Made by a program: the position numbers and the translations under genes
Shown: one piece after another, positions 22,820 through 47,337 of the stretch
How the letters are laid out: each line of letters begins with the position of its first letter
Position numbering within the stretch: the first letter of the stretch is position 1
Assembly (NCBI GenBank): GCA_964483785.1
Contig: CAZACW010000003.1
Span: forward strand, 20,559 to 84,558
Length of the DNA stretch: 64,000 bases
Direction: 5' to 3'
Source of the DNA: an uncultured Planctomycetales bacterium
GTDB lineage: Bacteria > Omnitrophota > Gorgyraeia > Zapsychrales > Fredricksoniimonadaceae
The notes under the pieces: generated by a model
Databases searched by the model: none
The model's input: the letters and a program-made list of their open reading frames with translations, nothing else
Told to the model about the DNA's origin: nothing

Positions 22820-23623
22820 TCACCGGGCGCCGAAGCCGGTCAAAATGACCCGGAATGTGCGCAAGATGATCCTGATATCGGTCAGGAAGCTGATGTTCTT
22901 GATGTAGAGGATATCGTATTTGACTTTTTTGCGCACATCCGCGATGGTCTCATCGTAGCGGTGGTGCACTTGGGCCAGGCCGGTGATGCCGGGTTTGACT
23001 CTCAGGCGTTTTTTGTAATCACCGATTTGGCCTTCCAATTGCTTGACAAATACCGGGCGCTCAGGCCTGGGGCCGATAACGCTCATCTCCCCTTTTAACA
23101 CATTGATAAATTGAGGGATCTCATCCAGACGGCTTTTGCGCAAAAATTGGCCGATGGGTGTGATTCTTTTGTCCTTGGCCTTGGCCCAAACAGGCCCTGA
23201 ATCTTTTTCCGCATCGATATTCATGGTGCGGAATTTATAGATTTCAAAATTTTTGCCGTCCTTGCCGGAGCGGATCTGGCTGTAAAAAATCGGACCTTTG
23301 GAGCTGAGCTTAATCAAAGCCGCAACCAACAGGCAGATAGGAGATAAAAGCACCAGACAAACGCAGGAAATGAGGATATCCATGATTCTTTTGGAGACAT
23401 GATAGGCCCTTCTTAAAAAAGCCACGATCATGGTCAAGACGCCGCTGCCGAAAAGCAGAAAGCTGGAAGGTTCAGGGGCCCGGGAATGGGGCTGGGCGAG
23501 CAAGGCATTGGCCTTATGCACGGCAACCGTGGCGGCCCAGGCATGGGCGTCCATGCCAAGCACAGCGATTAAGGCTGCTCCGAAACAAATAAAAGCCATG
23601 GTTTTAGAGGTCGATTTCATCAT
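22820..23623 (-). CDS. PglC/WbaP-C-terminal-like polyprenyl-phosphate sugar phosphotransferase with an about 80-aa N-terminal extension containing a signal-peptide-like helix and a PEP-CTERM-like motif
   Basis: Core KRIMDILISCVCLVLLSPICLLVAALIKLSSKGPIFYSQIRSGKDGKNFEIYKFRTM ... GPRPER ... PGITGLAQV are small sugar-transferase signatures. The extension reads MMKSTSKTMAFICFGAALIAVLGMDAHAWA-ATVAV ... RAPEPSSFLLFGSGVLTMIVAFLRRAYH, that is PEP, a hydrophobic stretch, then RR. No in-frame stop between the extension and the core. Confidence 0.8.
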   Translation of the reverse strand: MMKSTSKTMAFICFGAALIAVLGMDAHAWAATVAVHKANALLAQPHSRAPEPSSFLLFGSGVLTMIVAFLRRAYHVSKRIMDILISCVCLVLLSPICLLVAALIKLSSKGPIFYSQIRSGKDGKNFEIYKFRTMNIDAEKDSGPVWAKAKDKRITPIGQFLRKSRLDEIPQFINVLKGEMSVIGPRPERPVFVKQLEGQIGDYKKRLRVKPGITGLAQVHHRYDETIADVRKKVKYDILYIKNISFLTDIRIILRTFRVILTGFGAR

Positions 23624-23671
23624 TTTTGCTGTTTTTAGAGATTAAAAATTTGGCTTACATTAGGGTATAGC

Positions 23672-23688
23672 AGCAATTACCGTGCCAA
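23672..23688 (-). promoter_or_regulatory. Sigma-54 (-24/-12) promoter TTGGCACGGTAATTGCT upstream of the PEP-CTERM/sugar-transferase gene
   Basis: On the minus strand: TGGCAC-GGTAA-TTGCT. This is an exact match to TGGCAC-N5-TTGCW with correct 5-nt spacing. It lies about 50 nt upstream of the start codon at 23623, inside an AT-rich 240-nt gap. Confidence 0.65.
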
Positions 23689-23862
23689 ACCGCTAAAATC
23701 GCGCAAAATATTTAAATTTTTATAACTTGATTATTTCCAGTATGATAGAGAATAAATATAAAAATAAGATTAAAATCCCATAAAAAATACGTTCAAATAA
23801 GCAAAATAGAGGTATTTAAATGTATAAGTTTTTCAACACCCTATGTCTGATTTGACTTTATA

Positions 23863-24495
23863 TTAAGGTAGGTATTGCGATAATTTTGGACCTAACATGC
23901 TGGCAAATGCATCGATACGTTTTGAGGCCTCATTTTGACGCCCATCAATAATGTCAGCAGAAATCCTAATTAGAGCAGTACCTGTTCTCTTACCGGTCAA
24001 GGTATTATAGGCTGATAAGGTCTGCTGTTTCCAATAGCTGTGGGTGTACAAATTACCCACCTTAAACCAATAATAGACAATTTGCTGGTTTTGGTCATTA
24101 TCCAGCAAAAGCCAGTTGACCTTGATCTTGGGCCGAGAAGGGTTAATTATAATAGTATTCTTGCCCTTGTCAAGGATAGAAAATCCTGAATCCTTGTAAA
24201 AAATATCCGGCGGATTGGCGGCTTTGGGATTGCTTTGGGAATAGGCAATATATAAATAAATCCGCCCATGTCTGGCAGAATCATAACGCCTCAGAAAGGC
24301 GTTCTTGGTTTCCAAAATAGACACGTCCACCCTGCCCAAAGGCAGTTCCTGCGCAGTCCAGGGGCCGATGGTGGCGGGGAATTTTTCAACGCTGATGGAG
24401 TCCGGGTGATTAAAAGAAGTGGAATAATATTCCCATGAAATGAACATGGTGAAGATGGCCAGGGTCAGAATAAAAAAATAGTAGCGTGAGGGCAT
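23863..24495 (-). CDS. EpsI-family exosortase-associated protein
   Basis: 210 aa, N-terminal TM, IGPWTAQELP motif, periplasmic domain. It sits immediately downstream of the exosortase gene. Confidence 0.55.
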   Translation of the reverse strand: MPSRYYFFILTLAIFTMFISWEYYSTSFNHPDSISVEKFPATIGPWTAQELPLGRVDVSILETKNAFLRRYDSARHGRIYLYIAYSQSNPKAANPPDIFYKDSGFSILDKGKNTIIINPSRPKIKVNWLLLDNDQNQQIVYYWFKVGNLYTHSYWKQQTLSAYNTLTGKRTGTALIRISADIIDGRQNEASKRIDAFASMLGPKLSQYLP

Positions 24496-24496
24496 T

Positions 24497-25375
24497 TTAG
24501 GTCAATAGTTTTTTAACGGTAAAAAGCATCAAAAAAGCAAAAATAAAGACCATGTACCCTGATAATCCATGGAGAAAGCCCTGGGTGTATTGCGTTCCCC
24601 AGATCTCCCCTACCGCAGCCAAGAACACGATGCGCAGGGCATTGGTGACCACGGCAATGGGGATGGCCGAGGCAAAAAGCAGGATTTTTTTCGACAATCT
24701 CAATTTCAAGCGGTAGGCAAAGATACTGCCTAAGGCAGCCAGGGAGATCAGGGACCTTAAGCCGCCGCAGGAATCCTCCACTTCCACGTAACTATGGGAC
24801 ATCATGATCAAACTGCTCTGCTGCAGCGCGGGAAGGCCCATGAGATTGAGGACCAAGGTGGCCAGGTGCGCGGCGATGATTTTCAATTTAAAACACACAA
24901 AAGCGACCAGGATGATGGGCATGGGCACCATGAAGGCCAGAAACAATACCGGAAAACGGATTTCCTTGAGCGTCCTTTCCCCGTAAAAATACAGGATAAG
25001 GCCAGCGAGGATGATGATCATGGCGAAACCTGAGGTGAAATACACATGCAGAATGGCGCTGGCCCAATAGAGGATGACGCCTGCGCTAAATAGTTCAAAT
25101 CCCCAATGGGAGGGTTTAACCGGGATTTTTTTAAGGACAGCCCTTTTTTTCCAAATCAAAAATGCGGAGATGACGGGGATGAGAATGCCGTGGCTGTAAT
25201 AGGAATTGTCCGCGAACCAGCGGTCCCACATCCACAGCATGGTCGGGAAAAACGCGGCCAGCAAAAAGACAAATACCAGCAATTCCCGTTGATGGTCCCT
25301 GATCAGGGCCTTGGTCTGGAGCATATCATGGGTGCCGCGCCTTTGTCCAGGCGGCCTGCTGTTGGGCCGTGACAA
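24497..25375 (-). CDS. Exosortase (EpsH/Xrt family transpeptidase)
   Basis: 292 aa polytopic membrane protein. Conserved Cys in VEDSCGGLRSLISLAALG and Asn/Arg in VVTNALRIVFLA match the exosortase catalytic signature. Genomic context is EpsI, GT2, deacetylase. Confidence 0.75.
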   Translation of the reverse strand: MSRPNSRPPGQRRGTHDMLQTKALIRDHQRELLVFVFLLAAFFPTMLWMWDRWFADNSYYSHGILIPVISAFLIWKKRAVLKKIPVKPSHWGFELFSAGVILYWASAILHVYFTSGFAMIIILAGLILYFYGERTLKEIRFPVLFLAFMVPMPIILVAFVCFKLKIIAAHLATLVLNLMGLPALQQSSLIMMSHSYVEVEDSCGGLRSLISLAALGSIFAYRLKLRLSKKILLFASAIPIAVVTNALRIVFLAAVGEIWGTQYTQGFLHGLSGYMVFIFAFLMLFTVKKLLT

Positions 25376-26477
25376 AACGCCAAAAGCCGGCCAGCGCTGA
25401 GAAATTCAAAAGACAGAACACATACGGCACGTAGCAAACTTTGGAGATGTATTTCAAAAGGCCCTGGCGGCCCTCCCGCGTCAGATGCCCGATGAGGGCC
25501 GCCAGATAAAAGGCGGATTGAAGGACAAAGAAAAATCGGAAAACAGCATCATAAATTAGCACAAGATTGATCAAAAATAAAGCGATAAGGCAAAACGGGA
25601 CCATGACTCTCAGGAATTTATGGGAGATCAAGGGCCAGGCAATGGGGCTTTTCAAGGGGATGAACATGTCCGGAAAAAGGAAAAAAATCTGGTAATTGCC
25701 AAACAGGGTCCTGGTCTTGCGGCGGTATTCTTCCTTGGGGGAAGCTGCTACCTCATCAAAGGCCAGGGCACTGCCGTCGAAGACGGCCCGAAAACCCTGG
25801 CGGATGATGGCCAAGGGAATGTACATATCATCCAGGACAATGTCCAAAGGCCCGGGGACAAACAGATTTTTACGGATGGCGTAAATGGCGCCGGTCGAAC
25901 CCAGCATGGAATGCAGGGCGCTTTCCTGGCGGCGGATGAATTTTTCATAGGTCCAATACAGGCTGACCCCCTGGGCCGTGCTCCCTTGCTTGGGCGCGAA
26001 GACCAATTCCCCGCTGACACAGCCGATCTTGGGGTCGGCGAAATTGGCGGTCAATTGCTTCAGCGCGCCGGGGTCGATGTTTTGCCTGGCATCATTGAAA
26101 AAGATGATCTCATGGCCGGCATGCTCCACCAGGCTGTTGAGGGTGGCCATTTTTCCCTGGCGCTTTGGATTGACAAAGAGTTTGACCCGCGGGCTTAAAT
26201 AAGGGCGGATGATCTCATGGGTCAGGTCGCTGGAGCCGTCGGAGCCGATCAAAATTTCCAATTTGTTTTCGGGGTAATCGAGTTTAAGGAGATTTTGGAT
26301 TTTGGGACCGATCACATCTTCTTCATTGTAGACCGAGATGAGCAGAGAAACCGTCGGCTCATAGGAGGATTTATGCACCGGGTTTTTCAAAAGCCTGGCC
26401 AGCGCAAAGACCAGGCAGGGATAAAGAAAATAACAATAAACGACGAGCGACAAAATCGTCCAGAAGAGGATGGTCAT
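25326..26477 (-). CDS. Family 2 glycosyltransferase with C-terminal TM helices (processive synthase-like)
   Basis: LISVYNEEDVIGPKIQNLLKLDYP ... ILIGSDGSSD ... DAR, plus multiple C-terminal hydrophobic helices. Confidence 0.75.
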   Translation of the reverse strand: MTILFWTILSLVVYCYFLYPCLVFALARLLKNPVHKSSYEPTVSLLISVYNEEDVIGPKIQNLLKLDYPENKLEILIGSDGSSDLTHEIIRPYLSPRVKLFVNPKRQGKMATLNSLVEHAGHEIIFFNDARQNIDPGALKQLTANFADPKIGCVSGELVFAPKQGSTAQGVSLYWTYEKFIRRQESALHSMLGSTGAIYAIRKNLFVPGPLDIVLDDMYIPLAIIRQGFRAVFDGSALAFDEVAASPKEEYRRKTRTLFGNYQIFFLFPDMFIPLKSPIAWPLISHKFLRVMVPFCLIALFLINLVLIYDAVFRFFFVLQSAFYLAALIGHLTREGRQGLLKYISKVCYVPYVFCLLNFSALAGFWRFVTAQQQAAWTKARHP

Positions 26478-27256
26478 TGGATGAGTTTAATGAAGAGGCT
26501 GCGCAGTCCATTGTATCCGTTTTCGCGCAGCAGGATTTTCAAGGTCCTTTTGACCGCGTCCCCCGTCCTTTCCAGGAAAGGGGTCTTGCCATGCATGGCC
26601 AGATCGAAACGGGCCAGGTTCCAATGGGACTTGACCGCGATGCGGCTGATGCATCCTGATTTAAGCCAGGCCTGGGGTTCAGAAATGAAAATGGTCTTAT
26701 ACCCCAGCCCATAGGCGGTCTCGATGATTTTTTCGTTGCAAAACCCCCTGGGGATGGACAGGGCATCAATGCTGATCCCCAAATTTTTTTCCAGGTTTTT
26801 TTTGGAGGCCCGCAATTCCTCCTCCATTTGGGAATCCAGCAAATTGGTGAGGATCTCATGGCTCAAGCCGTGGGAGCCGATCACCATGCCGGCCTCATGC
26901 AGTTCTTTGAGCTCCTTCCAGCCCATATAGCCGTCCCTGCCCACCCTTTTGATGATGATGAAAAAATAAGCCTTCCATCCCATGCTTTTTAAGACCGGCA
27001 GGGCCTGCTTGTGATTGTTCATTTCCCCGTCGTCAAAGGTGATGATCACGGGTTTGGGGCCCATCAGCGCTGCGGTGTTTTCATACAGCGTTGGTTCAAA
27101 TCCCTGCTCTTTGAGCCAGTTCATCTGGGTGACGAAATTATCCAGGGACACATCATACAGGTGCGCCCCTGTTTCGCGGTCATCCGGCAGACGGCCCGGC
27201 TCATTGGCACTGATGCCGTGGTACATCAGGGTGATGGGATTAAGTCCTTGAGGCAC
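26474..27256 (-). CDS. Polysaccharide deacetylase (NodB homology domain), exosortase-locus type
   Basis: IITFDDGEMNNHKQALPVLKSMGWKAYFF ... GSHGLSHE are NodB motifs 1-3. Confidence 0.8.
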   Translation of the reverse strand: MPQGLNPITLMYHGISANEPGRLPDDRETGAHLYDVSLDNFVTQMNWLKEQGFEPTLYENTAALMGPKPVIITFDDGEMNNHKQALPVLKSMGWKAYFFIIIKRVGRDGYMGWKELKELHEAGMVIGSHGLSHEILTNLLDSQMEEELRASKKNLEKNLGISIDALSIPRGFCNEKIIETAYGLGYKTIFISEPQAWLKSGCISRIAVKSHWNLARFDLAMHGKTPFLERTGDAVKRTLKILLRENGYNGLRSLFIKLIQ

Positions 27257-27275: not shown

Positions 27276-27809
27276 TTACGATTCCATTAAACTCATGCGC
27301 GCCACCACAATGCGGCCGCGCAAGGACCCCGACGCATCGGAGTATTTTTCCAGGTTGAGCGCATTGATAAAGTAAAAGTTGGGCGGGTCCTGCAAGGCGC
27401 GCAAAAACTGCACGATGTCCAGCCATTGCCCGTCGATTTCCAGCTCCACCGGGAAAAAACTGGCCTCTTTCTGGATGAAGGACCTTTGCGGCTGGATATT
27501 GGCGATATGGATATTGCTTTCCCTGGCCGCGGCCTCGATTTTGGAGATGATCGCAGGGGCCTGGGTCTCTTCTGACCCGGCCAGGCCGATGGCATCCGCC
27601 AGATTATGGTACCTGGTTTCGATCATGCCCCCCTGGCCCAAGACCTGGCGGCTCTTTAAAAGTCTGGCCTTGGTGACCCGCAGTTGATCGTCGATGTCCG
27701 CGGCCCCTTCCTTAACGGGCCTGATCACCCAGAGGTAAACAAGAAAAACAGCCGAAAGCCCCAGGGTGATGCTCAGGATGATGGTTTCGCGTTGGCTAAG
27801 CTTTTTCAT
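27276..27809 (-). CDS. gspM: T2SS protein M-like (GspM/PilO fold)
   Basis: 177 aa with a short N-terminal cytoplasmic segment, one TM and a periplasmic domain. Last gene of the gsp-ordered operon. Confidence 0.5.
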   Translation of the reverse strand: MKKLSQRETIILSITLGLSAVFLVYLWVIRPVKEGAADIDDQLRVTKARLLKSRQVLGQGGMIETRYHNLADAIGLAGSEETQAPAIISKIEAAARESNIHIANIQPQRSFIQKEASFFPVELEIDGQWLDIVQFLRALQDPPNFYFINALNLEKYSDASGSLRGRIVVARMSLMES

Positions 27810-29235
27810 GCGGTGCGCTCATGGGTTTAAAGGCGCAGGTGATCTTGAAATAATCCACTTCTCCCTGCTGGGTCACCCGTTTATTGACATAATCCAAATT
27901 CACATTGGAAAATTTTTGGTAATTGGCCAGGTCTTTTTGGAATTGGTTGACATCGACGGGGTTTGAGGCCACCCCTTGAAACGAGAGGCTGTTGTTTTCA
28001 TTCAGGGCCATGCTGACCAGATACACCTGGGCCGGCAGGACACGGTAAATTTCCAAGGCCAAATCAGAAAAGACCAGGCGGTTTTTGACCATCGATTCAA
28101 TATCATGGATTTTTTTCAGCCGCTCCTCCACCTTCTGGGCCGCTTCTTTGGTGGTGCGCAGCTGGTCCTTAAGCTTGGCCAGCTGGATATTTTTTTTGAC
28201 ATAGCCCATGCTTAAAGAGAGCCCCAGGGCGGCCAGGGCCGCGGCCAGCCAAAGGCCGCAGATGATCAGCTGGCGCTGATGCATCTTTTGTTCCTGGGAT
28301 TGCCGCACAGCTGTTGGGACCAAATTGATGGGCGGTGTTTGACTGCTTAAGGCAATGCCGGCCAGCGGCGCCAGGGACATGCCCTCTTGCGTGCATAAGG
28401 AGGGTATGCGCACATCACGGGCCAATTTTAAGAATTTTGTCAACAGCACATCCTGAATGTTTAAGGCATTTTGGGTTTTGGTCAGTTCCTGGCCAAGGGC
28501 AAAAGCCCCTTCCCAGCAGCTGATGATATACACCGTGTCCAAGGCCTGGGCCGCCTTTTCGCCGCCGATATTATGCTGGGTCAGTTCCCATTGTTTTAAT
28601 ATTTCCCCATAACCGTCCTGAGCGATCTGGGTGAGACCCGACGGCAATTCTCTCGATGCAGACCAGTGCGCGGGATGGCAGACGCAGATTTCGCTTTTGT
28701 CAAGGTCAAGGTCAAAGACCGCCGCAGGCTTGTCCCCTGTATTGGGCCATTGGGTGTAAAGGTTCCAGAGGCCGATGGAGGAGAGCGTGATGCTGTGCAC
28801 CCTGACCTTGGCCTCCGCGAAGATTTTCCAATAGCGCATGGCGGTTTCCTGCGGGATGATGACCACAGCCACCTTGGCGTATCCGTCGGGAGATTTGGCC
28901 AGGACTTGAAAATCCATCTGCACTTCTTCCAATTCATAGGGAATGCTGCTGCTAACCTGCAGTTCGATCATGGAACGGATCTCGCTGTCCTGATGGGAAG
29001 GCACGGACATCAAACGCAGGATCACCCGCGAGCGCGGGATCACCACGGTCACCCTGGCCTCGTTCAAATTTAATCTGCGCCTTTTAAGAAAGGTCCAGAG
29101 GCCCTGGCTGATTTGAGCTTCGCTCTGGCCTTTGATCAAAAGCACATCCAGGGCCGTAACGAGCTTGGAGCTTGTCAGGACCTGTAAAAATTTGATGCGT
29201 TCCTCGTCGATATAAAACACGGCGTTGGATTTCAT
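27796..29235 (-). CDS. gspL: T2SS protein L-like (cytoplasmic actin-like domain + TM + periplasmic PilN-like domain). The true start is MKSNAVFYIDEERIKF. The upstream 52 codons in the ORF track are an Arg-rich read-through.
   Basis: Architecture is cytoplasmic domain, TM (LIICGLWLAAALAALGLSL), periplasmic domain. Position between gspK-like and gspM-like genes. Confidence 0.5.
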   Translation of the reverse strand: MKSNAVFYIDEERIKFLQVLTSSKLVTALDVLLIKGQSEAQISQGLWTFLKRRRLNLNEARVTVVIPRSRVILRLMSVPSHQDSEIRSMIELQVSSSIPYELEEVQMDFQVLAKSPDGYAKVAVVIIPQETAMRYWKIFAEAKVRVHSITLSSIGLWNLYTQWPNTGDKPAAVFDLDLDKSEICVCHPAHWSASRELPSGLTQIAQDGYGEILKQWELTQHNIGGEKAAQALDTVYIISCWEGAFALGQELTKTQNALNIQDVLLTKFLKLARDVRIPSLCTQEGMSLAPLAGIALSSQTPPINLVPTAVRQSQEQKMHQRQLIICGLWLAAALAALGLSLSMGYVKKNIQLAKLKDQLRTTKEAAQKVEERLKKIHDIESMVKNRLVFSDLALEIYRVLPAQVYLVSMALNENNSLSFQGVASNPVDVNQFQKDLANYQKFSNVNLDYVNKRVTQQGEVDYFKITCAFKPMSAPHEKA

Positions 29236-29237
29236 CT

Positions 29238-30254
29238 TTAATCCCTTTGCCGGGACACCAGAACGGCCGGCGCGCCGGGCACGCGATGGATCACCGCTTC
29301 GATGATGGATCGCGCACCGCTGACAGCGTCGATGCCGATGACCCTGGCCCGGTAATAATTGGAGACCCCTTCCTGCAGGGCCGCGGGCCAATTGGGGTCA
29401 GCCACGCTGGCCAAGGACCCTGCCCCGTCGTCCAAGGTAAAAGACCGGCTGTCCGCGCCGTCGCGCAGGGCATAGGCTTGGCTGATCACCTCATCGGCGT
29501 TGACAGACGGATTAACGCGGGCCGCGGCATGGACAACGGCCTGGATCACGTCATTGTCGGCCGTGTCCACATTGACTCTAAGGCCGTTTTGGATGTCCCC
29601 ATAAACAGTCACATCGTCTTTTATTTTAGCAAAAATTTCCTTGGTCATGCCATTTACTTCCAATAATTCCAGGAGATTTTCATAGGGCCTGTTTTTGGTC
29701 TTCAACAGCGCATCATCCAGGTTTTTGAAAGACTGATTGTTGCTGGCCTGCGCGTTTAAGCCCGTGTAATTGACGATGGCCAGGGCCAGCCTGTCCCCTT
29801 CTGCCAATGAAAGGCCATAGACCTGCAGCAAGGCGCTGAGGACCTGGTAATTGGAAATCCCGATGGCATTGATATTGATGCGCCCCCCTTCATCCCTGAT
29901 GCCGTATTGCATCTGCCCGTCGTCCACACCGTTGAAATGCGCTGCCGGCCAGGCGATGATGGCGTAGTTACGGGGGCCGGTGTCGACATGGGAAAATAAT
30001 GTTTCAGGGCTTTGGGTGGCGCTGATCAGAATGCCGTCGGAATATAAACAGTCCTTGGCCGCGGGCGCTTTTTGCAGAAGATCCAGGACCTGATTGAGCC
30101 CGGAGCGCGCGGCTGCCAGGGAGCGCAGTTTTCCCCGGTAGGTGTCGACCAGGGACACTTCCAGCGCGGCGCGCCGGCCAAGGCCCCAGGCGATCAAGGC
30201 CAAAATGATCAGGACCCATAAGGCCACGATCAAGACAGCGCCTCTATTGTTCAT
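29238..30254 (-). CDS. gspK: Minor pseudopilin GspK-like (start at MNNRGAVLIVALWVLIIL, no Glu+5)
   Basis: Prepilin-like N-terminus lacking the conserved glutamate. About 338 aa. Position after gspJ-like. Confidence 0.5.
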   Translation of the reverse strand: MNNRGAVLIVALWVLIILALIAWGLGRRAALEVSLVDTYRGKLRSLAAARSGLNQVLDLLQKAPAAKDCLYSDGILISATQSPETLFSHVDTGPRNYAIIAWPAAHFNGVDDGQMQYGIRDEGGRININAIGISNYQVLSALLQVYGLSLAEGDRLALAIVNYTGLNAQASNNQSFKNLDDALLKTKNRPYENLLELLEVNGMTKEIFAKIKDDVTVYGDIQNGLRVNVDTADNDVIQAVVHAAARVNPSVNADEVISQAYALRDGADSRSFTLDDGAGSLASVADPNWPAALQEGVSNYYRARVIGIDAVSGARSIIEAVIHRVPGAPAVLVSRQRD

Positions 30255-40693: not shown

Positions 40694-40727
40694 AACCCAC
40701 CTCGCCGTTGGGGCATTACATTAAATT

Positions 40728-40767: not shown

Positions 40768-40876
40768 AATGGTGAATATGGCAACTGGCTACCTGTCCGG
40801 GCTACGGCCCGGGGTAAGGCCCTATAGCTTTGTGCCCCACCCTTTCGGGTGGTTTACCTTTTACATATCTAAGCGA

Positions 40877-40905
40877 AGCATAACACGTAATTCTTGTGTT
40901 GTCAA
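40877..40905 (-). promoter_or_regulatory. Sigma-70-like promoter TTGACA-17nt-TATGCT on the minus strand, about 175 nt upstream of the paralog-A start
   Basis: Minus-strand read aaacTTGACAacacaagaattacgtgtTATGCTtcg. Perfect -35, 17-nt spacer, 4/6 -10. Confidence 0.3.
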
Positions 40906-41062
40906 GTTTACTAAAAATCAAATATAATTTGATATTAGGTATATTATTTGCCTAATAATCAAAGTATATTTTTGCGGTCAAGATTAAAAAGATCGATGTC
41001 AAATTCGACAGAAACAGGTTTTTATCCTAAAAAATTATTGTAAACCTTAGATAGATATTGAA

Positions 41063-43129
41063 TTAAGATTGTGGTGAAGAGGATTTGGCAGGAGGCAGTT
41101 TTTGGTCGGAAACGGTTATCAGCACAGGTTTTGAGACAGTTGTCCTGCCTTCCGTGTCCGTGGCTGTGGCGATAATGGAATAGGTCCCTAAAGCGACTTT
41201 TTCAGCCATATATTCATAGGGAAGCCGGCTGACCGTTCCCAAAAGATTCATTCCATTGTAATAAAAATTGACATGGGCAATGGTGCCGTTGATCTCTGAA
41301 GCAGCGGCTATAATGGCCACGTTCGACCCGGCCGGGAACATCGTATCTTTAACCGGCCTGGTGATAACGATTTCAGGATTATATTTAATCTGGGGCAAGG
41401 CCGCAGCCGGCTTGCCGCTGGTGATATTCTTGGACAAAGCGTTGAACGGATTGTTTTTAAGGCCAAGCAGGCTGTTGGCTGATGTTCCTTGATAATAGGT
41501 ATCTGCCCTGCCCCCTGCCTGGCCCATGGGTATTTTATCGGCAAAATCAGGTTTTTTGCCGCATGCGTTTAAAAATCCGCTGCAGCCGTGATTATTGTTT
41601 CTGGTGTGGTACACCGTATTGCCCAGCTGGTCCCATTTCAGGTTTCCACAGCTTCCTGCGCCATCGCCGTTGCTTCCCGCATTGTAAATATAGCTGGTCA
41701 AGGCATTGCCGCCGGCGCTGTTGAAGGAAGTATCATCGATCCAGGCATAGCCGCCCAGCACCACATTATTTTTCAAAGATATGGAGGTGGAACCGTCACA
41801 GCCGCTGCCGTTAATATCCGATGATTCCAAGCTTATATTCCCATTGCTTAAAATCGTGTTATTTTCCAAAGAGGTATGGCTGTGATTGGTCACGTTAAAG
41901 ACCACTGCGTCTCCCAGGGCCCGGCAAATGTCCCCGCCTTTAAAACCCGGCGAAGAGACCGCAGCGCCCAGCCACCAGCCGCAATCACCGATTACAACAC
42001 TGTTGGTCATGCGGGAGTTTAAGGCATTCATCTTCACCTGATTGCCGGCATTGCCCTCAAAGAGCATCTTGTCAATGAAGATGTTCCCGTCCCCATTGCC
42101 GTGCAGGGTGTCTAAGCCGTCCTGGGTGTTAAAACTGATGGAGCCTGGGCCCTGGATGCTCCAGTTGCCCGCTCCTCCGTGTCCCACATTGCCGAAGGCC
42201 AGGCCGTCCCCGTAACCGCTTTGGTTTTGGCCGAAACAATCCGTGAGATTGGAAGGGCTGTCCATCACCAGATCATTATTTAAGGGATAGGACTCGACAC
42301 AGCCGTTGTATTCGATCACCGGCTGATCAAAGGTCAAGGTGCCGGAAATCACGGCATTGGTCCCGGTCGTAAATCCGCCATATCCGTTGCCGATGATCCT
42401 CAAGCGCGTAAAGACAGCACTGCCTAAATTGTCCGTGTTGATGCCGTAGCGCCCCATCCCATGCACATAGACATCAATGATATGGACATCATCCCCTCCT
42501 ATATTTAATCCATCCAGCGCCCAGGGTCCGTAGGGATAAGGGCCGTCGTAATTACAGCCTTTGTCCGGGGAATTATAAGCGCAGCTGGCGTGGTCGGTGA
42601 TGTCCAGATTTTGAAGCACAAGATGGTTGTTGTTGGCATTGAGGATTTGCCATAATCTTTGCGTGCCCCATAATTGCGGCTTGTGCTGGCCCGTGCCGAT
42701 GATGGAGCTGGGCTGTAAAGCGCTAAGGCCGGCAGGCAGATTGCCCAGGGTGCAGTCATAGGGGTAGGACTCGGCACATCCCGGCGTCGCGTTATTCTCC
42801 CCGTCATCATATCCGATTTCATATTGGGCCTGGCCTCCGTTTGCCGGATCATCGCCGCTGATGTACAAGGTGTCCCCCGCATGCATCACACCGGCATTGG
42901 CGCAATTGTTTCCGGCATTGCCGCAGCCCCAGCCTAAGGCATAGCGCGGATGATTAAAGGCGCAGTCAACAGCACTGCCGGAGCCGGGATAGGCTGCATC
43001 CGCTGTGCCGGAGCATTCTTCCGGCGTCCCCCCATCCGGGCGGACATAATAGGCCGCGGCCAGGGCAAGGGTCTGGGAAAACACGGCCAGACCGAGAAAC
43101 AGGATGAATATGAAAATGGGTTTGTTCAT
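41063..43129 (-). CDS. Secreted beta-helix protein with one C-terminal Ig-like domain (paralog B, divergent)
   Basis: Signal peptide. N-terminus AAYYVRPDGGTPEECSGTADAAYPGSG ... RYALGWGCGNAG has the same Cys-rich module. Beta-helix rungs and one Ig-like repeat before a low-complexity tail. Confidence 0.8.
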   Translation of the reverse strand: MNKPIFIFILFLGLAVFSQTLALAAAYYVRPDGGTPEECSGTADAAYPGSGSAVDCAFNHPRYALGWGCGNAGNNCANAGVMHAGDTLYISGDDPANGGQAQYEIGYDDGENNATPGCAESYPYDCTLGNLPAGLSALQPSSIIGTGQHKPQLWGTQRLWQILNANNNHLVLQNLDITDHASCAYNSPDKGCNYDGPYPYGPWALDGLNIGGDDVHIIDVYVHGMGRYGINTDNLGSAVFTRLRIIGNGYGGFTTGTNAVISGTLTFDQPVIEYNGCVESYPLNNDLVMDSPSNLTDCFGQNQSGYGDGLAFGNVGHGGAGNWSIQGPGSISFNTQDGLDTLHGNGDGNIFIDKMLFEGNAGNQVKMNALNSRMTNSVVIGDCGWWLGAAVSSPGFKGGDICRALGDAVVFNVTNHSHTSLENNTILSNGNISLESSDINGSGCDGSTSISLKNNVVLGGYAWIDDTSFNSAGGNALTSYIYNAGSNGDGAGSCGNLKWDQLGNTVYHTRNNNHGCSGFLNACGKKPDFADKIPMGQAGGRADTYYQGTSANSLLGLKNNPFNALSKNITSGKPAAALPQIKYNPEIVITRPVKDTMFPAGSNVAIIAAASEINGTIAHVNFYYNGMNLLGTVSRLPYEYMAEKVALGTYSIIATATDTEGRTTVSKPVLITVSDQKLPPAKSSSPQS

Positions 43130-43141: not shown

Positions 43142-46100
43142 TTAATTGACCGAAGAATTCGTCACGGTATTGGAAGAGGTCAGGACTCCGTCGGCTTGGT
43201 CTGTCTGTGCGGCATCATCCGCAGCCACAACCACGGGTGCGGCTGCAACGCTCGGCCCAACAACAGGCGGCGCAGGAGTATTGGTGGCTGGCAGCGGCGG
43301 CGGAGTAAGGTTGCTTGCCACATTAATGCTGACCGGTGTTGAGGTGGAAGACCAACCGTAACTGTCCGTGGCCTTGGCCGTTAAGGTGTAATTGCCGGGC
43401 TGGACATTGTTCCAGGTCACGGTATAAGGGCTGTTATAGGCTGTTCCTAAATACAGCCAGCCATTGCTGTAGAAATCAACCTTGGTGATACTGCCTCCTG
43501 TGACCGCGGCATTGGCAGTCACAGGAATATTGGCGAATGAGCCAAAGGAGGCGTTATTGGCCGGGGCCGCGATGCTGATGGTGGGGGCTTTATGGGCGCT
43601 GACCGTGACGGTCACAGGCGATGCATAAAACACATTGCCGTTGCTGTCCACTGCCTTGGCCGTAAGATTATAGCTTCCCGGCTGGGCGCTGTTCCAATTG
43701 ACCTTGTAGGGAGGCCGGTTGGCTTCCCCTAAATAGAGCGATCCCGCATAATAATCCACCCTGTAAATGATGGCCCCTTGATCGGAAACATCGGATTTCA
43801 AGACGATATTGGCAGGGAGCGTAAAAGAAGCATTGCTGCCGGGTGATGTCAGGCTGATGGAGGGCGCATTAACAGCAGCTTGGCTCGGCGGCGCGCTGAC
43901 CGGAGCATTGACGGTAATGCTTATAGGCGCTGAGGTCACGGTTTGATTGTTGGCATCCGTGGCCACTGCGGTAATGGTGTAAGTACCTGCAGGCACATTG
44001 GTCCAGATGAAACTATAGGGGCTGTTGGCATCTGTACCCAAGAGATTATTGCCGTTAAAAAACGCGACCTGGGTGATGCTCCCGTTGTTTTCAGAAGCGG
44101 CAGCATTTAAGGTGATATTATTCCCTGCCGTAAAGGCGGCATTGTTGGACGGAGAACTTATACTGACTACCGGCGGTGAACTCGGCACGGATACGATTAT
44201 GTTGACAGCGCCGGAGGTTGAGGACCAGCCATAACTGTCCGTGGCCTTGGCCGTCAGAATGTAATTGCCGGGCTGGACATTGTTCCAGGTCACGGTATAA
44301 GGGCTGTTTTCTGCGGAACCTATATATAAGGACCCGCTGTAAAAATCAACCTTGGTGATGTTTCCGCCCGAAGATGAGGCGCTGGCTGTCAGCGTAATGT
44401 TCGCGGGCGTATTAAACGATACGCCGGCAGAGGGCGATGTCAGGGAAACTGCAGGCGCTGCATGGGCGCTGACCGTGATATTGATTGGCGTGGAATAAAA
44501 AACCGCCCCATTGCTGTCCGTGGCCTTGGCTGTGACGCTGTAATTGCCGGCCTGCGCGCTGTTCCAGGCCACGGAATAAGGGCTGAAGGTCGACTCCCCT
44601 AAAAACACCGGGCCCGCGTTATAATCGACCCTGTACACCTGGGCGCTGTCTGTCACCGTGGCGTTAAAGGTAATGGCCGCAGGCACGGTAAAGGAAGCAT
44701 TGTTTCCCGGAGAGCTGATGCTGATATTCGGGGCGGCATTGTTCGTTGGGATGTTTTGGGCGGTGACTGTCAAAGCCACGGGTGCCGAGGTCGTTGTGGC
44801 CCCATTGGCATCTGTGGCCACGGCTGTGATGGCATAGGTTCCCGCAGCCACATTATTCCAAGTATAGCTGTAGGGGCTATTGCTAAGTGCAGCCAGCAGA
44901 TTTGTCCCGTTATAATAAGAGACCTGGGTGATGGTGCCGTTGCTCTCCGAGGCGGTTGAGGTGAAGGTGATATTGGAGCCTGAAGCAAAGGTGCTGTTAT
45001 TCGGGGGTGTGGCGATCATCACAACCGGCGCAGCCTGCAGCGCCGGCGCTGTCACTATGATCGTCACCGGCGCCGAGGTCGCGGTGGCGCCGTTGGCATC
45101 TGTGGCCACGGCCGTCAATGCGTCTGTGCCCGGCGGCAGATTGACGGCGATCCATTGATAAGGTGCTGCCAAGGAAGTCCCTAAAAGGTCCGTGCCGTTA
45201 TAGAAGGCCACCTGGGTAATACTGCCGTTGTTTTCCGAGGCCGTGGCTGTAATGGTGACGCTGGCTGTGCTTAAGACGCTGCTGCCGTCGGCCGGAGCCG
45301 TGATGCTGACTGCCGGCTGTCCAGGTGCCGGGGCCGGCGGGTTCTGGATGGGCGGCGGGCTATTTTGGCTTACCGGATTGCTTGGCAGCGTTGTCTGCGG
45401 ATTCACGCATACGGCATTGGAGCAATCATTGTTGGTACATTCCGCGTTGAAAAAGCAGGTGCCGCCGTCAGCCACGGTTGATCCGTATTGATAGGACCCA
45501 ATGGCCCAGGCCGGACTGCGGGGGTTATTGTTGTAATCACTGGACGTGCCGCTTAGGACCAGGCTGCTGTTGCCTGCGCCGATCAAGGGAGAATTGGCCG
45601 CCGGATAAAATTGGTCAGCCAGGCCGACATTGGTATACTCATGGGAACTGTTTAAGGCGAAGTTTCCAGCCACGCCGGCATTTGCCGGATTATTGCAGAT
45701 ATCATGGCTGCCTGCGCAGTCCTGGGGATCATTCACCTGATAGACCAGATTATTGTTCTCCACCACATTGGCGCAGGAGCCGGCATCATTTTCCCAAAAC
45801 CTGGTCTGCTGGGAAAAGCTGCTGGTATAATCCGGCGCTCCCACAATTAAATTGTTGTTGACGTTGACAGTGACCTTGCCGCCGCTGCACCAGGACGTTG
45901 TCAGTTCAATGTTGGTGCCGCCGTTGGAATAAAACGTCGAGTTGGACACATTAAAGGCCGCGGTATTGTTGGGGATGGCAAAGACCAGTCCGTCGCCGGC
46001 AGCCCGGCAAAAATCATAGCCGTTGATGGGCGGGCAATTGCCGTAAGAATCGCAGGAGGTGGTAAAGGGCTGGCCCGCGAAAAAATTGCAGTTATTGATG

Positions 46101-47299
46101 ATTTGGGAATTTTCGATATTAACGGCGGCGTAATTGAGCTTCATCTGCTGGCTTTCATTGCCTTCGGCCCTGACGCGGTAGGCATTGAAGCTCCCGGTGC
46201 CGTTGCAGTGCAGATTGTCCACCCCTCCCTTGGTATTATAAGCAATGATGGAATTGCTCATGGTGATATTGTTGCAGATGCCGGTGCCGGCTTCCATGCC
46301 CCAGCCGTCGGCTAAGATGCCTCCGTTGCTGCTGCTGTCATCGGCGCAATGGTGGTAGTTTAAAGCATCAAAAGGATTGCTGGAATGCAAAGGATAAACC
46401 GAGCCGCATCCGTTAAAGACAATGGTGTCTCCGTTGACCGTGGTGATGCCGCCTAAGGACATGGTCCCGGAATTGCTGATGTTTTGGCCCAGGCCCACCC
46501 CGCCTCCGCCGTTGCCGTTGATGATATTGTTGGTTTCCGTAAAATTGCTTAAATTTCCGGTGGTGATGCCCCAGAAAGACATGCCGTGGACCCAATTGTT
46601 TTCCAGGGTAATGTTGGCGCCGGTGAGGCTTATGCCTGCCAATCCATAATCACCATAGGGGGAATTAAAGCCATTGTTCGGTTTATGGCAGGCATTGGGA
46701 AATCCGCCGGTCTGTTCGGCCGGGTCAGCGCCGTTGGTCACACAGGATGAATGCTGGGTGATTTCCAGGTTATTGATGATGGTATTGGAACTGTTATTGT
46801 CATTGAGGACCTGTACTACTTCTTCCCTGCCCCATAATTGCGGCCTTTGCGAGCCGATCCCGATGACGGAAGAATTGGACGGCATATTGGCCATGGTGCA
46901 GTCTTCGGGCGCCTGGGCCACGCAATGGCGGCCGTCCACAGGTGTAATTACGCCGCTGGTGTCAAGGCCGATGGGATATTGGGCCTGGGCGCCGGGCACC
47001 AGGTCGCTGTCTCCCACAATATAAAGCGTGTCTCCGCTGGACATGAGACTGGGCCTGTCGCAGGCATCAAAGCCGGTATTGCCGCATCCGGCGCCCAGCA
47101 CGTACATGGGATTTGAAAAGGCGCAGGGTTGATTGGTGCCGTTGCCGGGATAGACCGCGTTGGCCGTGCCTGTGCATTGCGTGGGATTGCCCCCGCCGTC
47201 ACGTACATACCAGTTGGCGGCACAGGCAGGCGCTGACCAAAGCACGGCCCAGCCAAAACAGCTTCCTAATATTATGGGGGAGGAAAAAATGAACCGCAT
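43142..47299 (-). CDS. Large secreted protein: Cys-rich module + beta-helix + 7 tandem Ig-like repeats + Pro-rich tail (paralog C). Likely start MRFIFSSPIILG at 47299. The ORF track begins at 47317 inside the palindrome.
   Basis: About 90% identical to paralog A over the sampled beta-helix core (NNW[IV]HGMS[YF]WG ... GWGMEAG[ST]GICN). Seven roughly 100-aa Ig-like repeats. 12-nt gap to paralog B. Confidence 0.8.
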   Translation of the reverse strand: MRFIFSSPIILGSCFGWAVLWSAPACAANWYVRDGGGNPTQCTGTANAVYPGNGTNQPCAFSNPMYVLGAGCGNTGFDACDRPSLMSSGDTLYIVGDSDLVPGAQAQYPIGLDTSGVITPVDGRHCVAQAPEDCTMANMPSNSSVIGIGSQRPQLWGREEVVQVLNDNNSSNTIINNLEITQHSSCVTNGADPAEQTGGFPNACHKPNNGFNSPYGDYGLAGISLTGANITLENNWVHGMSFWGITTGNLSNFTETNNIINGNGGGGVGLGQNISNSGTMSLGGITTVNGDTIVFNGCGSVYPLHSSNPFDALNYHHCADDSSSNGGILADGWGMEAGTGICNNITMSNSIIAYNTKGGVDNLHCNGTGSFNAYRVRAEGNESQQMKLNYAAVNIENSQIINNCNFFAGQPFTTSCDSYGNCPPINGYDFCRAAGDGLVFAIPNNTAAFNVSNSTFYSNGGTNIELTTSWCSGGKVTVNVNNNLIVGAPDYTSSFSQQTRFWENDAGSCANVVENNNLVYQVNDPQDCAGSHDICNNPANAGVAGNFALNSSHEYTNVGLADQFYPAANSPLIGAGNSSLVLSGTSSDYNNNPRSPAWAIGSYQYGSTVADGGTCFFNAECTNNDCSNAVCVNPQTTLPSNPVSQNSPPPIQNPPAPAPGQPAVSITAPADGSSVLSTASVTITATASENNGSITQVAFYNGTDLLGTSLAAPYQWIAVNLPPGTDALTAVATDANGATATSAPVTIIVTAPALQAAPVVMIATPPNNSTFASGSNITFTSTASESNGTITQVSYYNGTNLLAALSNSPYSYTWNNVAAGTYAITAVATDANGATTTSAPVALTVTAQNIPTNNAAPNISISSPGNNASFTVPAAITFNATVTDSAQVYRVDYNAGPVFLGESTFSPYSVAWNSAQAGNYSVTAKATDSNGAVFYSTPINITVSAHAAPAVSLTSPSAGVSFNTPANITLTASASSSGGNITKVDFYSGSLYIGSAENSPYTVTWNNVQPGNYILTAKATDSYGWSSTSGAVNIIVSVPSSPPVVSISSPSNNAAFTAGNNITLNAAASENNGSITQVAFFNGNNLLGTDANSPYSFIWTNVPAGTYTITAVATDANNQTVTSAPISITVNAPVSAPPSQAAVNAPSISLTSPGSNASFTLPANIVLKSDVSDQGAIIYRVDYYAGSLYLGEANRPPYKVNWNSAQPGSYNLTAKAVDSNGNVFYASPVTVTVSAHKAPTISIAAPANNASFGSFANIPVTANAAVTGGSITKVDFYSNGWLYLGTAYNSPYTVTWNNVQPGNYTLTAKATDSYGWSSTSTPVSINVASNLTPPPLPATNTPAPPVVGPSVAAAPVVVAADDAAQTDQADGVLTSSNTVTNSSVN
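43309..45397 (-). repeat. Tandem Ig-like domain repeats (7 copies) inside paralog C
   Basis: Periodicity seen in the protein. Antisense ORFs 44025-44234, 44928-45158 and 45228-45491 repeat the same motif (LPLFSEAAAFKV / VPLLSEAVEVKV / MFSEAVAVMVTL). Confidence 0.7.
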
Positions 47300-47310
47300 A
47301 TTTCTTACAA

Positions 47311-47337
47311 CCATCACAACCCCGGGGGTTGTGATGG
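47311..47337. repeat. Palindrome copy 3 (CCATCACAACCCCGGGGGTTGTGATGG), 12 nt upstream of the paralog-C start codon
   Basis: Read directly. Extends to A ... T at 47310/47338. Confidence 0.8.

Follow-up and report, generated by a model that had tools for sequence, protein, structure and literature searches.

The pullulanase gene and the pul genes of Klebsiella are a canonical example of a T2SS operon with adjacent cargo, and the hps locus of cyanobacteria, which contains pseudopilin genes, has been proposed to function in polysaccharide extrusion. Canonical T2SS operons with adjacent cargo (PMC11980579) serve as a comparison set for the locus described here. In the rhombosortase/GlyGly-CTERM and myxosortase/MYXO-CTERM systems, the client proteins cross the outer membrane via the T2SS, and one MYXO-CTERM protein with an internal sorting motif is thought to be a product of gene fusion (PMC3237569, PMC11980579). 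For the PEP-CTERM/exosortase systems, sigma-54 motifs have been described upstream of PEP-CTERM genes (Haft 2006, PMC1569441), and in Aquincola, the epsB2-prsK-prsR gene order is accompanied by RpoN dependence (PMC9850573). We analyzed a 64-kb stretch of DNA (hereafter the window) from an uncultured bacterium that probably belongs to the Omnitrophota; its nearest named relatives are Candidatus Omnitrophota MAGs, and the window contains a composite locus. Its backbone, a Wzy-type exopolysaccharide (EPS) cluster together with an XrtA-like exosortase/EpsI cassette, is a known kind of locus, and the variation consists in a 20-kb insert (27276-47317) comprising the genes of three paralogous secreted beta-helix/Ig proteins and the T2SS operon of the clade.

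The gene order given in the original prediction, with the three beta-helix proteins followed by the T2SS and the exosortase cassette, is real, as confirmed from the ORFs and family searches, and all these genes are on the minus strand, as are all features listed below. The gaps calculated from the gene coordinates are likewise at most 123 nt, with the two anticipated exceptions of 369 nt (40694-41062) and 239 nt (23624-23862). Co-directionality had been considered special to 22820-47317, but the minus strand carries every credible gene from position 1 to 63959, and because the whole 64-kb window is co-directional, the shared strand is uninformative. Nor does the proposed end-to-end fusion of an EPS cassette with a T2SS apply, given that EPS genes are located on both sides of the insert. 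Those upstream (47374-63959) encode a GH123-like protein, a GT4, a double GT4, a Wzy-type polymerase, hexapeptide acyltransferases, another GT4, three GT2s, a 475-aa protein without an assigned family, PMT_2, a further GT2 and MBOAT. Neither an OPX/Wza gene nor a chain-length-determinant gene was detected among the scanned window ORFs of at least 150 aa, and no clear flippase gene was found within the window. The G+C content of the block 27276-47317 is 54.6% compared with 50.6-50.9% in the flanks, a small difference.

The conserved exosortase cassette starts with a polysaccharide deacetylase (26474-27256), which shows 49-67% identity to its counterparts in the related loci L082, L084 and L124-L128. 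It is followed by a GT2 glycosyltransferase (25326-26477; 55-67% identity in L084 and L124-L128, with a different GT2, 31% identical, in this position in L082), the exosortase (24497-25375) and the exosortase-associated EpsI (23863-24495). The exosortase, the real product of which is probably 275 aa long, belongs to the generic EpsH subfamily (TIGR02602, 171.9 bits with a cut-off of 105.55; signature TIGR04178, 69 bits with a cut-off of 23) and is 100% identical to P0049. Residues C203, R248 and H269 are retained in at least 97% of the 119 aligned sequences. No exosortase subtype model reached its cut-off (XrtA, 174.6 bits with a cut-off of 208), in contrast to the situation in XrtA loci. Because L127 and L128 carry ordinary small PEP-CTERM proteins beside the transferase, the exosortase is a conventional one. 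The window resembles the PEP-CTERM/EpsH-XrtA EPS loci in that the exosortase and EpsI are encoded among a deacetylase, glycosyltransferases and a Bac_transf priming enzyme, and that the gene with the PEP-CTERM motif has a sigma-54 -24/-12 site in front of it; canonical small PEP-CTERM proteins together with a TPR protein are found in L127 and L128. Unlike these loci, the window encodes neither a TPR PrsT nor an ordinary PEP-CTERM protein, the PEP-CTERM motif is inside the transferase, and the T2SS and beta-helix genes are inserted.

The most unusual feature of the locus is the PEP-CTERM module ahead of the catalytic domain of the priming sugar transferase (polyprenyl glycosylphosphotransferase, Bac_transf; 22820-23623), whose N-terminus consists of a signal peptide, about 19 aa of linker and the internal motif PEPSSFLLFGSGVLTMIVAFLRR (residues 49-72, about 23408-23479). 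Six-frame translation of the window bears out the earlier observation that the sole PEP-CTERM motif resides, oddly, on an enzyme. The signal peptide-linker-PEP-CTERM module is preserved in 113 of the 120 best transferase homologues, with the conserved pattern S-[RHN]-[AV]-PEP-S-[ST]..LFGSG....F-[LV]-RR-x-Y, which resembles the canonical PEP-CTERM tails of small proteins encoded nearby in L127 and L128. In longer transferase fusions, a real extracytoplasmic domain precedes the motif. The predicted sigma-54 -24/-12 promoter (23672-23687; TGGCACGGTAATTGCT) is the only exact match to TGGCAC-N5-TTGCW in the window (zero mismatches), lies on the correct strand about 50 nt 5' of the ATG, and is present upstream of the transferase in four of the five relatives checked (L082, L084, L124 and L126).

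The transferase is followed by a GAF histidine kinase (21500-22756), a sigma-54 response regulator (20118-21503) and a PocR/GAF protein (19163-20134), all identified by family search, and the order of the three regulators is the same in L082, L084, L124-L126 and L128. This arrangement of transferase, kinase and sigma-54 response regulator parallels proteobacterial epsB2-prsK-prsR, although the kinase is of the soluble GAF type, in contrast to the transmembrane PrsK. Neither the kinase (88 bits, cut-off 300) nor the regulator (377 bits, cut-off 502.6) reached the PrsK/PrsR cut-offs.

The insert begins with three proteins, A (43142-47317, 1391 aa), B (41063-43129, 688 aa) and C (37361-40693, 1110 aa), each with a Sec-type signal peptide and, at the N-terminus, a common domain of about 600 aa. 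In an alignment (A1) with the domain of C as the reference (first row), identity to this domain is 80% for A and 35% for B. In A, this domain is followed by a Cys-rich knot, at least seven Big_7 Ig repeats and a low-complexity tail; B combines the divergent domain with one Big_7 repeat, and C has five such repeats. None of the three contains a C-terminal PEP-CTERM, in agreement with the original prediction, but the description of these proteins as giant is overstated, the truly large ORF of the window being one of at least 3963 aa at 1-11889. The domain of C is confidently predicted (AF2 model, pLDDT 90.5, pTM 0.93) to form a right-handed beta-helix that resembles polysaccharide lyases, epimerases and phage tailspikes, so that the polysaccharide-active fold suggested earlier is recovered as a carbohydrate-enzyme-like beta-helix model. 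Foldseek matches include GH136, PL9 Pel9A, AlgE4/AlgG, the RbmB VPS lyase and tailspikes, as well as phage beta-helix and depolymerase models. These matches are modest (TM-score 0.4-0.5, 9-13% identity) and do not decide between a putative lyase, hydrolase, epimerase or mere binder. The similarity to AlgG, AlgE4, RbmB and the tailspike depolymerases thus consists in the predicted right-handed parallel beta-helix and the location of the genes in a polysaccharide locus, whereas the Cys-rich character of the domain, the Big_7 repeats that follow, the 9-13% identity and TM-scores of 0.25-0.5 set it apart from these proteins. The family has 48 detectable members, of which distant ones carry PF13229, and the window proteins themselves have no Pfam match to the domain. 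Homologues that are 44-58% identical to the domain are found in phage tail modules, a likeness to tailspike depolymerases, and P0002 (62%), the closest of the homologues on long contigs, is surrounded by unrelated genes, without T2SS or exosortase neighbours.

The T2SS operon encodes a secretin (35163-36746; Secretin, Secretin_N and N0 domains), the GspE ATPase (33460-35148; T2SSE, GspE model 577 bits with a cut-off of 630), the platform protein GspF (32239-33453) and the major pseudopilin GspG (31789-32226; TIGR01710, 155.7 bits with a cut-off of 88.85). Next are GspH-like (31326-31910), GspI-like (30962-31336) and GspJ-like (30244-30972) minor pseudopilins with prepilin N-termini, GspK (29238-30389; 63 bits, below the cut-off of 130, with the true start probably internal), and the assembly platform proteins, namely a fused PilM+PilN protein that takes the place of GspL (27796-29391) and a PilO/GspM-like protein (27276-27809). 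The 164-aa membrane protein in the GspC/PilP position (36743-37237), for which no Pfam or NCBIfam match was obtained, is assigned by position and conservation only; about 20 related loci encode a homologue (29-54% identity) directly 5' of the secretin. As in canonical T2SS operons, GspD, E, F, G, H-K and an L/M-type platform are encoded together, with genes for Sec-dependent secreted proteins immediately 5'. The differences are that the platform is PilM-PilN/PilO-like, the secretin scores equally, and below threshold, for PilQ (274 bits, cut-off 284) and GspD (267 bits, cut-off 351), GspC is unrecognisable by profiles, no prepilin peptidase was found among the scanned window ORFs of at least 150 aa, the ATPase contains an N-terminal MshEN c-di-GMP-binding motif (60.9 bits, cut-off 38), and an EPS locus surrounds the operon. 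The rhombosortase and myxosortase systems are similar in linking a C-terminal-tag sorting enzyme with the T2SS, but here the putative T2SS cargo is tagless, the sorting enzyme is an exosortase, and the link is gene adjacency in one sublineage only.

Comparison of related loci reveals a recurring core that consists of at least one beta-helix/Ig protein, then deacetylase-GT2-exosortase-EpsI, the sigma-54 promoter with the transferase, and kinase-regulator-PocR/GAF. This core occurs without the T2SS in L084, L124, L125, L126 and L128; the beta-helix/Ig genes are directly 5' of deacetylase-GT2-Xrt in L084, L124, L126 and L128, and in L125, at a contig end, only the Ig repeats are visible. The slot between the beta-helix genes and the deacetylase is either empty or filled by a full T2SS or a three-gene minor-pilin cassette. 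Two of the three cassette genes are of the prepilin type, and the cassette is found in four lineages and not in the window; like the PVC Verru_Chthon minor-pilin cassette (TIGR02596/TIGR02599), it is a small prepilin-type cluster away from the main machinery, but the matches of its proteins and of GspG/GspH to the Verru_Chthon models are weak, with scores far under the cut-offs. The T2SS occupies the slot only in the window and in one related lineage (L082/L083/L087), with the same gene order and with 66% and 77% identity for Xrt and GspD, respectively. In L127, which is collinear with window positions 47374-54413 plus 22820-27256, the Hexapep-Wzy-GT4x2-GT4-GH123 run (49-58% identical) directly precedes deacetylase-GT2-Xrt, with neither T2SS nor beta-helix genes. 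The direct EPS-exosortase junction in L127 and the variability of the slot among relatives identify 27276-47317 as an insert.

We therefore read the region, with moderate confidence, as a composite EPS/exosortase locus with a beta-helix and T2SS insert. The kinase/regulator pair would switch on the transferase through the -24/-12 promoter, and the transferase would prime a lipid-linked sugar for an EPS whose assembly and tailoring may fall to Wzy, the GT2 and GT4 glycosyltransferases, the deacetylase and the acyltransferases. Sec would carry the beta-helix proteins into the periplasm, and the T2SS would carry them out of the cell, where they might cut, epimerise or bind the EPS, with the Ig repeats as a possible spacer or anchor within the matrix. 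A competing, somewhat doubtful reading is accidental adjacency, whereby a general T2SS landed beside the exosortase cassette in one sublineage and has no dedicated link to the beta-helix proteins or EPS. Exosortase genes are absent in 11 of the 12 related T2SS loci with readable sequence beyond GspM (the exception is L087), beta-helix/Ig genes are absent upstream of GspC in 14 of 15, neither exosortase nor beta-helix genes are found near any of the 80 GspE loci examined in species-representative genomes, the exosortase locus is complete without the T2SS in L127 and L124, and the shared strand carries no information. Because most related T2SS loci lack such neighbours, the T2SS is likely a general machine. 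Nevertheless, the window and L082/L087 have kept the arrangement although their proteins differ by 20-45% in amino-acid sequence, prepilin-type genes fill the same slot in four other lineages, a beta-helix gene independently comes after the T2SS in the distant locus L112, and the short gaps with overlapping stops and starts suggest co-transcription. Thus, of the co-occurrence that was originally predicted, the association of beta-helix and exosortase genes recurs and the adjacency of all three parts extends beyond a single genome, but the three-part unit with the T2SS is not conserved; its placement here is sublineage-specific, which suggests co-use of the machinery rather than an obligate part of the system.

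It is also conceivable, if rather unlikely, that the beta-helix/Ig proteins are T2SS-secreted offensive or adhesive factors directed at foreign (host or prey) glycans and not at the EPS of the cell itself. T2SS-like loci of Omnitrophota have been tied to a predatory lifestyle and to giant proteins for adhesion and carbohydrate degradation (bioRxiv 10.1101/2023.11.21.568195), and the ORF of at least 3963 aa about 15 kb away, the phage tail-module genes among the closest beta-helix homologues and the adjoining GH123-like hydrolase gene would fit such a role. However, beta-helix genes are found directly 5' of the deacetylase-GT2-exosortase cassette repeatedly, in five lineages, and enzymes acting on the own polymer are well known from EPS loci, as with AlgG and RbmB, both among the fold matches. 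Much less probable still is a pseudopilus machine that helps extrude the polysaccharide, similarly to cyanobacterial hps, with the beta-helix proteins as periplasmic or surface tailoring enzymes. The apparent lack of OPX/Wza and chain-length-determinant genes in 64 kb of EPS genes, the recurrence of pilin-type genes inside exosortase loci and the MshEN motif of GspE, c-di-GMP being described in a review as controlling polysaccharide secretion in other bacteria, are compatible with this scenario. Against it, the operon has the full complement of a protein-secreting T2SS and in relatives is mostly located away from EPS genes, GspG matches the HpsC model only trivially (19.5 bits with a cut-off of 200, prepilin N-terminus only), and the genes for export may just be located beyond the window.

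Under the composite-locus reading with secreted, EPS-directed beta-helix proteins, the exosortase would recognise the PEP-CTERM of the transferase itself and either clip a short periplasmic leader or dock the enzyme. Such an action of the exosortase on the transferase, if true, would tie the sorting of proteins to the initiation of glycan synthesis.

The gene order between 47317 and 22820 on the minus strand, as obtained by ORF listing and profile scans, is the one originally predicted: three secreted beta-helix/Ig proteins, A (43142-47317), B (41063-43129) and C (37361-40693), are followed by a T2SS-like operon, a polysaccharide deacetylase, a GT2 family glycosyltransferase, an exosortase (24497-25375), EpsI and a priming sugar transferase of the Bac_transf family (22820-23623). 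The gap sizes agree as well, the two larger ones being 369 nt (between B and C) and 239 nt (between EpsI and the transferase). The genes do share a strand, as expected of the single co-directional supercluster that had been proposed, but this is nothing special given that all credible genes between 1 and 63959 are on the minus strand. Nor is an EPS cassette fused end-to-end with the T2SS; instead, EPS genes are located on both flanks, with the upstream ones occupying 47374-63959. The description of the beta-helix proteins as giant is better reserved for a separate minus-strand ORF of at least 3963 aa (1-11889, running past the start of the window), which has no Pfam match and a signal-anchor-like N-terminus (MLKNKYINRPILWTVLTTFLVNTLV...). 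In Omnitrophota, giant genes have been reported close to T2SS-like loci (bioRxiv 10.1101/2023.11.21.568195). Assignment of the window to this phylum is based on its named relatives. Elsewhere in the window, a single 690-aa ORF (15012-17084) combines porphobilinogen deaminase, uroporphyrinogen methyltransferase (TP_methylase) and uroporphyrinogen-III synthase, a fusion that is kept in the related loci L083 and L124 and is represented by two gene calls in L082.

Exosortase systems are common in environmental bacteria. The exosortase of the window is a multi-pass membrane protein (PF09721, 211.9 bits) that exceeds the cut-offs of TIGR02602 (171.9 bits; cut-off 105.55) and of the exosortase/archaeosortase signature TIGR04178 (69.2 bits; cut-off 23). 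In an alignment of 119 sequences (the window protein and 118 homologues), residues C203, R248 and H269, which, following the literature, we take to be those of the transpeptidase site, reach at least 97% conservation. The sequence collection contains a 100%-identical counterpart of the exosortase and another of the transferase, and sample SRR12313480 has a transferase gene identical to that of the window. The match to the XrtA model TIGR03109 (174.6 bits) is under the cut-off of 208, and the scores against the XrtD and XrtW models are likewise under their cut-offs, so the protein is best classified as a generic exosortase. The backbone of the locus appears to belong to the PEP-CTERM/exosortase class of EPS systems, with no subtype assignment.

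The sole PEP-CTERM motif of the window resides, as predicted, on an enzyme, namely the transferase, and six-frame translation yielded no other. This protein contains a full catalytic domain (PF02397, 233.9 bits; TIGR03025, 312.2 bits, cut-off 295.55) and is predicted to be a polyprenyl glycosylphosphotransferase of the small monotopic Bac_transf type. The N-terminus (MMKSTSKTMAFICFGAALIAVLGMDAHAWA) is a signal peptide, followed by a 19-residue linker, PEPSSFLLFGSGVLTMIVAFLRR and the catalytic domain. The PEP-CTERM motif is of the right form but internal, spanning residues 49-72, and scores 19.4 bits against the Pfam model (cut-off 20.7). Signal peptide, variable linker and motif recur in 113 of the 120 best homologues (55-100% identical), in which the motif follows the pattern S-[RHN]-[AV]-PEP-S-[ST]..LFGSG....F-[LV]-RR-x-Y. 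The possibility that an ordinary membrane helix was matched by chance is ruled out, because PEP, the LFGSG core and the basic tail are maintained while the linker varies. The leader and PEP would be periplasmic, with the helix crossing inward and the basic tail and the enzyme in the cytoplasm.

Six of the seven homologues without the full module start inside or past the motif, as if their gene calls were truncated; the seventh is P0248. The combination of PF07589 and PF02397 is precomputed for more than 20 of the 120 best homologues, and a profile of the motif and its junction retrieved 180 cluster representatives (E <=0.001) among 1.84 billion. In several relatives (P0321, P0330, P0354, P0347, P0431 and P0310), the motif is preceded by a signal peptide and 60-260 extracytoplasmic residues, and these longer proteins have the appearance of a priming glycosyltransferase to which a complete PEP-CTERM cargo protein has been joined. 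The 2500-aa top match, P0289, was discarded: a new signal peptide begins after each of its 10 PEP-CTERM-like stretches, so that several tandem PEP-CTERM genes were probably read through or mis-called as one. Each of the seven scanned loci with an exosortase (L082-L084, L124-L126) likewise has the transferase motif as its only one; in L127 and L128, canonical small C-terminal PEP-CTERM proteins adjoin the orthologous transferase on its 3' side. We found no description of a PEP-CTERM-transferase fusion in the literature searched, the coverage of which is incomplete, so that absence is not proven.

The transferase gene is also the focus of the predicted regulation. The exact element TGGCAC-N5-TTGCW occurs once in the 64 kb, at 23672-23687 on the minus strand, ~50 nt 5' of the transferase ATG, and the orthologous genes of L082, L084, L124 and L126 have this sigma-54 element upstream too. 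After the transferase gene come those for a histidine kinase of the GAF type, a sigma-54 response regulator and a PocR/GAF protein. An earlier study reported sigma-54 sites in front of PEP-CTERM genes (Haft 2006; PMC1569441), and the order epsB2-prsK-prsR has been reported in Aquincola (PMC9850573); the site and the transferase-kinase-regulator order observed here fit these patterns. The regulator and the kinase nevertheless score under the PrsR and PrsK cut-offs (377 bits against the PrsR model, cut-off 502.6, and 88 bits against PrsK, cut-off 300). No TPR protein of the PrsT type is encoded in the window, whereas one is present in L128. Within the 369-nt gap directly upstream of gene C, there is an AT-rich hairpin with a 20-bp stem (40726-40769, minus strand); a sigma-70-like promoter match is found at 40877-40905.

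In the secretion operon, the major pseudopilin GspG is readily recognized (TIGR01710, 155.7 bits; cut-off 88.85). The secretin, GspE and GspF contain clear Pfam domains and score under the T2SS equivalog cut-offs (GspD 267/351, GspE 577/630, GspF 338/424), with similar scores obtained for the secretin and the ATPase against the PilQ and PilB models. Candidates for the minor pseudopilins (GspH, GspI, GspJ and GspK) are four genes whose size and order fit and which have prepilin or GspK-type N-termini; all score under the cut-offs (63/130 for GspK). The GspC position is occupied by a membrane protein of 164 aa that matches no family, the GspL position by a PilM-PilN fusion, and the GspM position by a protein weakly matching PilO and GspM (31.9 bits; cut-off 60). 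The prepilin peptidase GspO has no match among the scanned window ORFs of at least 150 aa and may be encoded elsewhere in the genome. Neither a PilT-family retraction ATPase nor a PilA-type major pilin gene is present in the window, the single ATPase of the operon being of the GspE/PilB type, and this distinguishes the operon from a type IVa pilus. The operon is T2SS-like in having genes of the GspG and GspK types but none for a retraction ATPase; its platform resembles that of type IV pili, and its GspC is unrecognizable. The ATPase (33460-35148) carries an N-terminal MshEN c-di-GMP motif that exceeds the curated cut-off (60.9 bits versus 38), which suggests that secretion could be controlled by c-di-GMP. 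Most of the related T2SS loci (L092, L095, L099, L101, L102, L106, L116, L117 and L122) contain, ~0.6-1.5 kb upstream of the GspC-like gene, a small P-loop gene that resembles GspE only across residues 312-430 and has no counterpart in the window.

Proteins A, B and C each consist of a Sec-type signal peptide directly followed by a common Cys-rich domain of ~600 aa and then by Big_7 repeats (at least seven in A, one in B and five in C). As claimed in the original prediction, these large proteins carry no PEP-CTERM: none of the three ends in a sorting signal. The domain of C is 80% identical to that of A and 35% to that of B. The AF2 model of the C domain (pLDDT 90.5, pTM 0.93) is a right-handed beta-helix, in agreement with the fold that had been anticipated, and the top matches in PDB and BFVD are all beta-helix enzymes or tailspikes (probability 1.00). 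The best PDB matches include GH136 lacto-N-biosidases, PL9 pectate lyase, AlgE4, AlgG, the Vibrio VPS lyase RbmB and tailspikes, and the best viral ones are models of phage beta-helix proteins, tailspikes and depolymerases; these matches, at 9-13% identity to the domain, do not single out a catalytic class. PF13229 is detected in distant homologues. In the alignment of the domain, H211, D334, K360 and R405 are invariant, and E152, H156 and E352 are nearly so. The family is small (48 matches among 5.8 billion sequences), and the closest homologue on a long contig has unrelated neighbor genes. A 1226-aa protein in L126 (2338-6018) contains the B-like domain twice in tandem.

Two homologues of the beta-helix domain, P0005 (58% identity) and P0009 (44%), are encoded in phage structural modules (L085 7263-9395 and L081 10001-12253, respectively), next to the gene for a Laminin_G_3 protein. 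The L085 module includes genes for a major capsid protein, a tail assembly chaperone, a Dit-like protein and E217-type baseplate proteins. The resemblance of L081 to a phage is one of layout only: it has numerous small ORFs, a C39-type peptidase and large proteins of the beta-helix and Laminin_G_3 kinds. The phage copies oddly retain a signal-peptide-like N-terminus, and neither the beta-helix domains nor the phage-context homologues could be placed in a family by a PHROGs scan. At the C-terminus, P0005, P0009 and P0012 share a Cys-rich knot and a short repeated SGK/SGN...F motif. The presence of homologues in phage tail modules points to a cell-surface polysaccharide as the likely target common to the enzymes of the cell and the phages. 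To our knowledge, phages of Omnitrophota, itself a little-known phylum, are essentially undescribed.

Comparison of the related loci indicates which parts of the arrangement are conserved. In L082, L083 and L087 (exosortase 66% identical), the T2SS order is the same as in the window, and L087 also encodes a large Ig-repeat protein upstream of GspC; in these three loci, the GT2 gene between the deacetylase and the exosortase (8943-9980 in L082) is non-orthologous, with 31% identity versus 55-67% in the other relatives. In several other loci, the T2SS slot contains a three-gene cassette that encodes a 127-aa PilV/GspI-like prepilin, a ~165-aa GspJ-like prepilin and a ~373-aa membrane protein without a family match. 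In L084 (exosortase 61%; cassette 3420-5429, upstream of deacetylase-GT2-exosortase) it follows a beta-helix/Ig gene, in L125 (58%; 1561-3569) an Ig-repeat gene of which the Ig repeats alone are visible at the contig end, in L126 (52%; 6108-8099) two beta-helix genes, and in L128 (51%; 3365-5416) one beta-helix gene. Homologues of the cassette are not found in the window, where the matches are limited to prepilin N-termini. Profile-profile comparison of the third cassette protein with GspK aligned 67 N-terminal residues with a probability of 16%, on which the cassette is not established as an I-J-K tip complex. In L128, an AbiEii/HTH toxin-antitoxin pair lies between the deacetylase and GT2 (7590-8839), and the deacetylase is duplicated.

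The remaining two loci contain no such cassette: in L124 (exosortase 68%), the C-terminal end of a beta-helix gene abuts the deacetylase, with no T2SS, and in L127 (53%), a Hexapep-Wzy-GT4x2-GT4-GH123 series is followed by one 293-aa ORF and the deacetylase. The upstream genes of L127 are collinear with 47374-54413 of the window, and thus the segment 27276-47317 is an insert in a conserved backbone; the ~4% difference in G+C content is suggestive of insertion but not decisive.

A secretin scan of metagenomes identified ~20 loci with an operon of the order GspC-like-D-E-F-G-H-I-J-K-L-M (43-83% identity). Past GspM, the exosortase cassette is present in L087 only and is absent in the 11 other loci with sequence in this region, two of which (L108 and L109) are one sequence from two samples; an Ig-rich gene upstream of GspC is also found only in L087 among these loci. 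A distant T2SS locus, L112, contains a beta-helix gene after GspM. None of the 80 GspE loci from a scan of 185,579 species genomes has exosortase or beta-helix neighbors, a result that says little on close relatives because only one locus (L001, 63%) is reasonably close. The gene neighborhood thus does not bear out the proposed three-part surface-decoration unit, which is not conserved as such, the T2SS loci mostly being devoid of exosortase and beta-helix genes. The position of the T2SS next to the exosortase cassette (deacetylase-GT2-exosortase-EpsI, 23863-27256) is sublineage-specific. Nevertheless, the pilin cassette in the same slot elsewhere and the L112 locus speak for a link to pilus-type secretion that is real but not obligatory. 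The literature searched holds no description of an exosortase-T2SS unit, although with incomplete coverage this does not prove that there is none.

The analysis shows the anatomy, the pattern of conservation, the fold and the motifs, whereas the functional steps are all inferred. Most likely, the locus serves to synthesize and modify an EPS and is controlled by a sigma-54 two-component system. The transferase would prime the synthesis; assembly and modification of the polymer would fall to the flanking glycosyltransferases, Wzy, acyltransferases and deacetylase. Proteins A, B and C would be translocated by Sec and exported by the T2SS, to act on the polymer or bind to it outside the cell. The exosortase would recognize the PEP-CTERM of the transferase by cleavage or docking, in addition to any ordinary clients encoded elsewhere. 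Dependence of sorting-tag clients on T2SS has been established for GlyGly-CTERM and MYXO-CTERM but not for PEP-CTERM (PMC3237569, PMC11980579).

The exosortase described here adjoins a transferase bearing the recognition motif of the exosortase itself, pilin/T2SS genes and secreted proteins of glycan-active type. We know of no identified acceptor molecule of exosortases, nor of a known outer-membrane route for their clients. By a bold reading that we consider rather unlikely, the conserved fusion means that the exosortase works in physical and stoichiometric contact with the priming enzyme of the lipid-linked glycan, the glycan or lipid intermediate is the acceptor, and the recurrent pilin/T2SS genes mark the outer-membrane route of sorted or accessory proteins, by analogy with GlyGly-CTERM and MYXO-CTERM proteins. 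For exosortase biochemistry, the transferase fusion could serve as a simple test substrate. The parts of the system are known, and it is their wiring that is clade-specific. If the acceptor reading is true, the window would represent a minimal form, with the cargo part shrunk to ~19 residues, and the interaction between the exosortase and the transferase would be what selection keeps.
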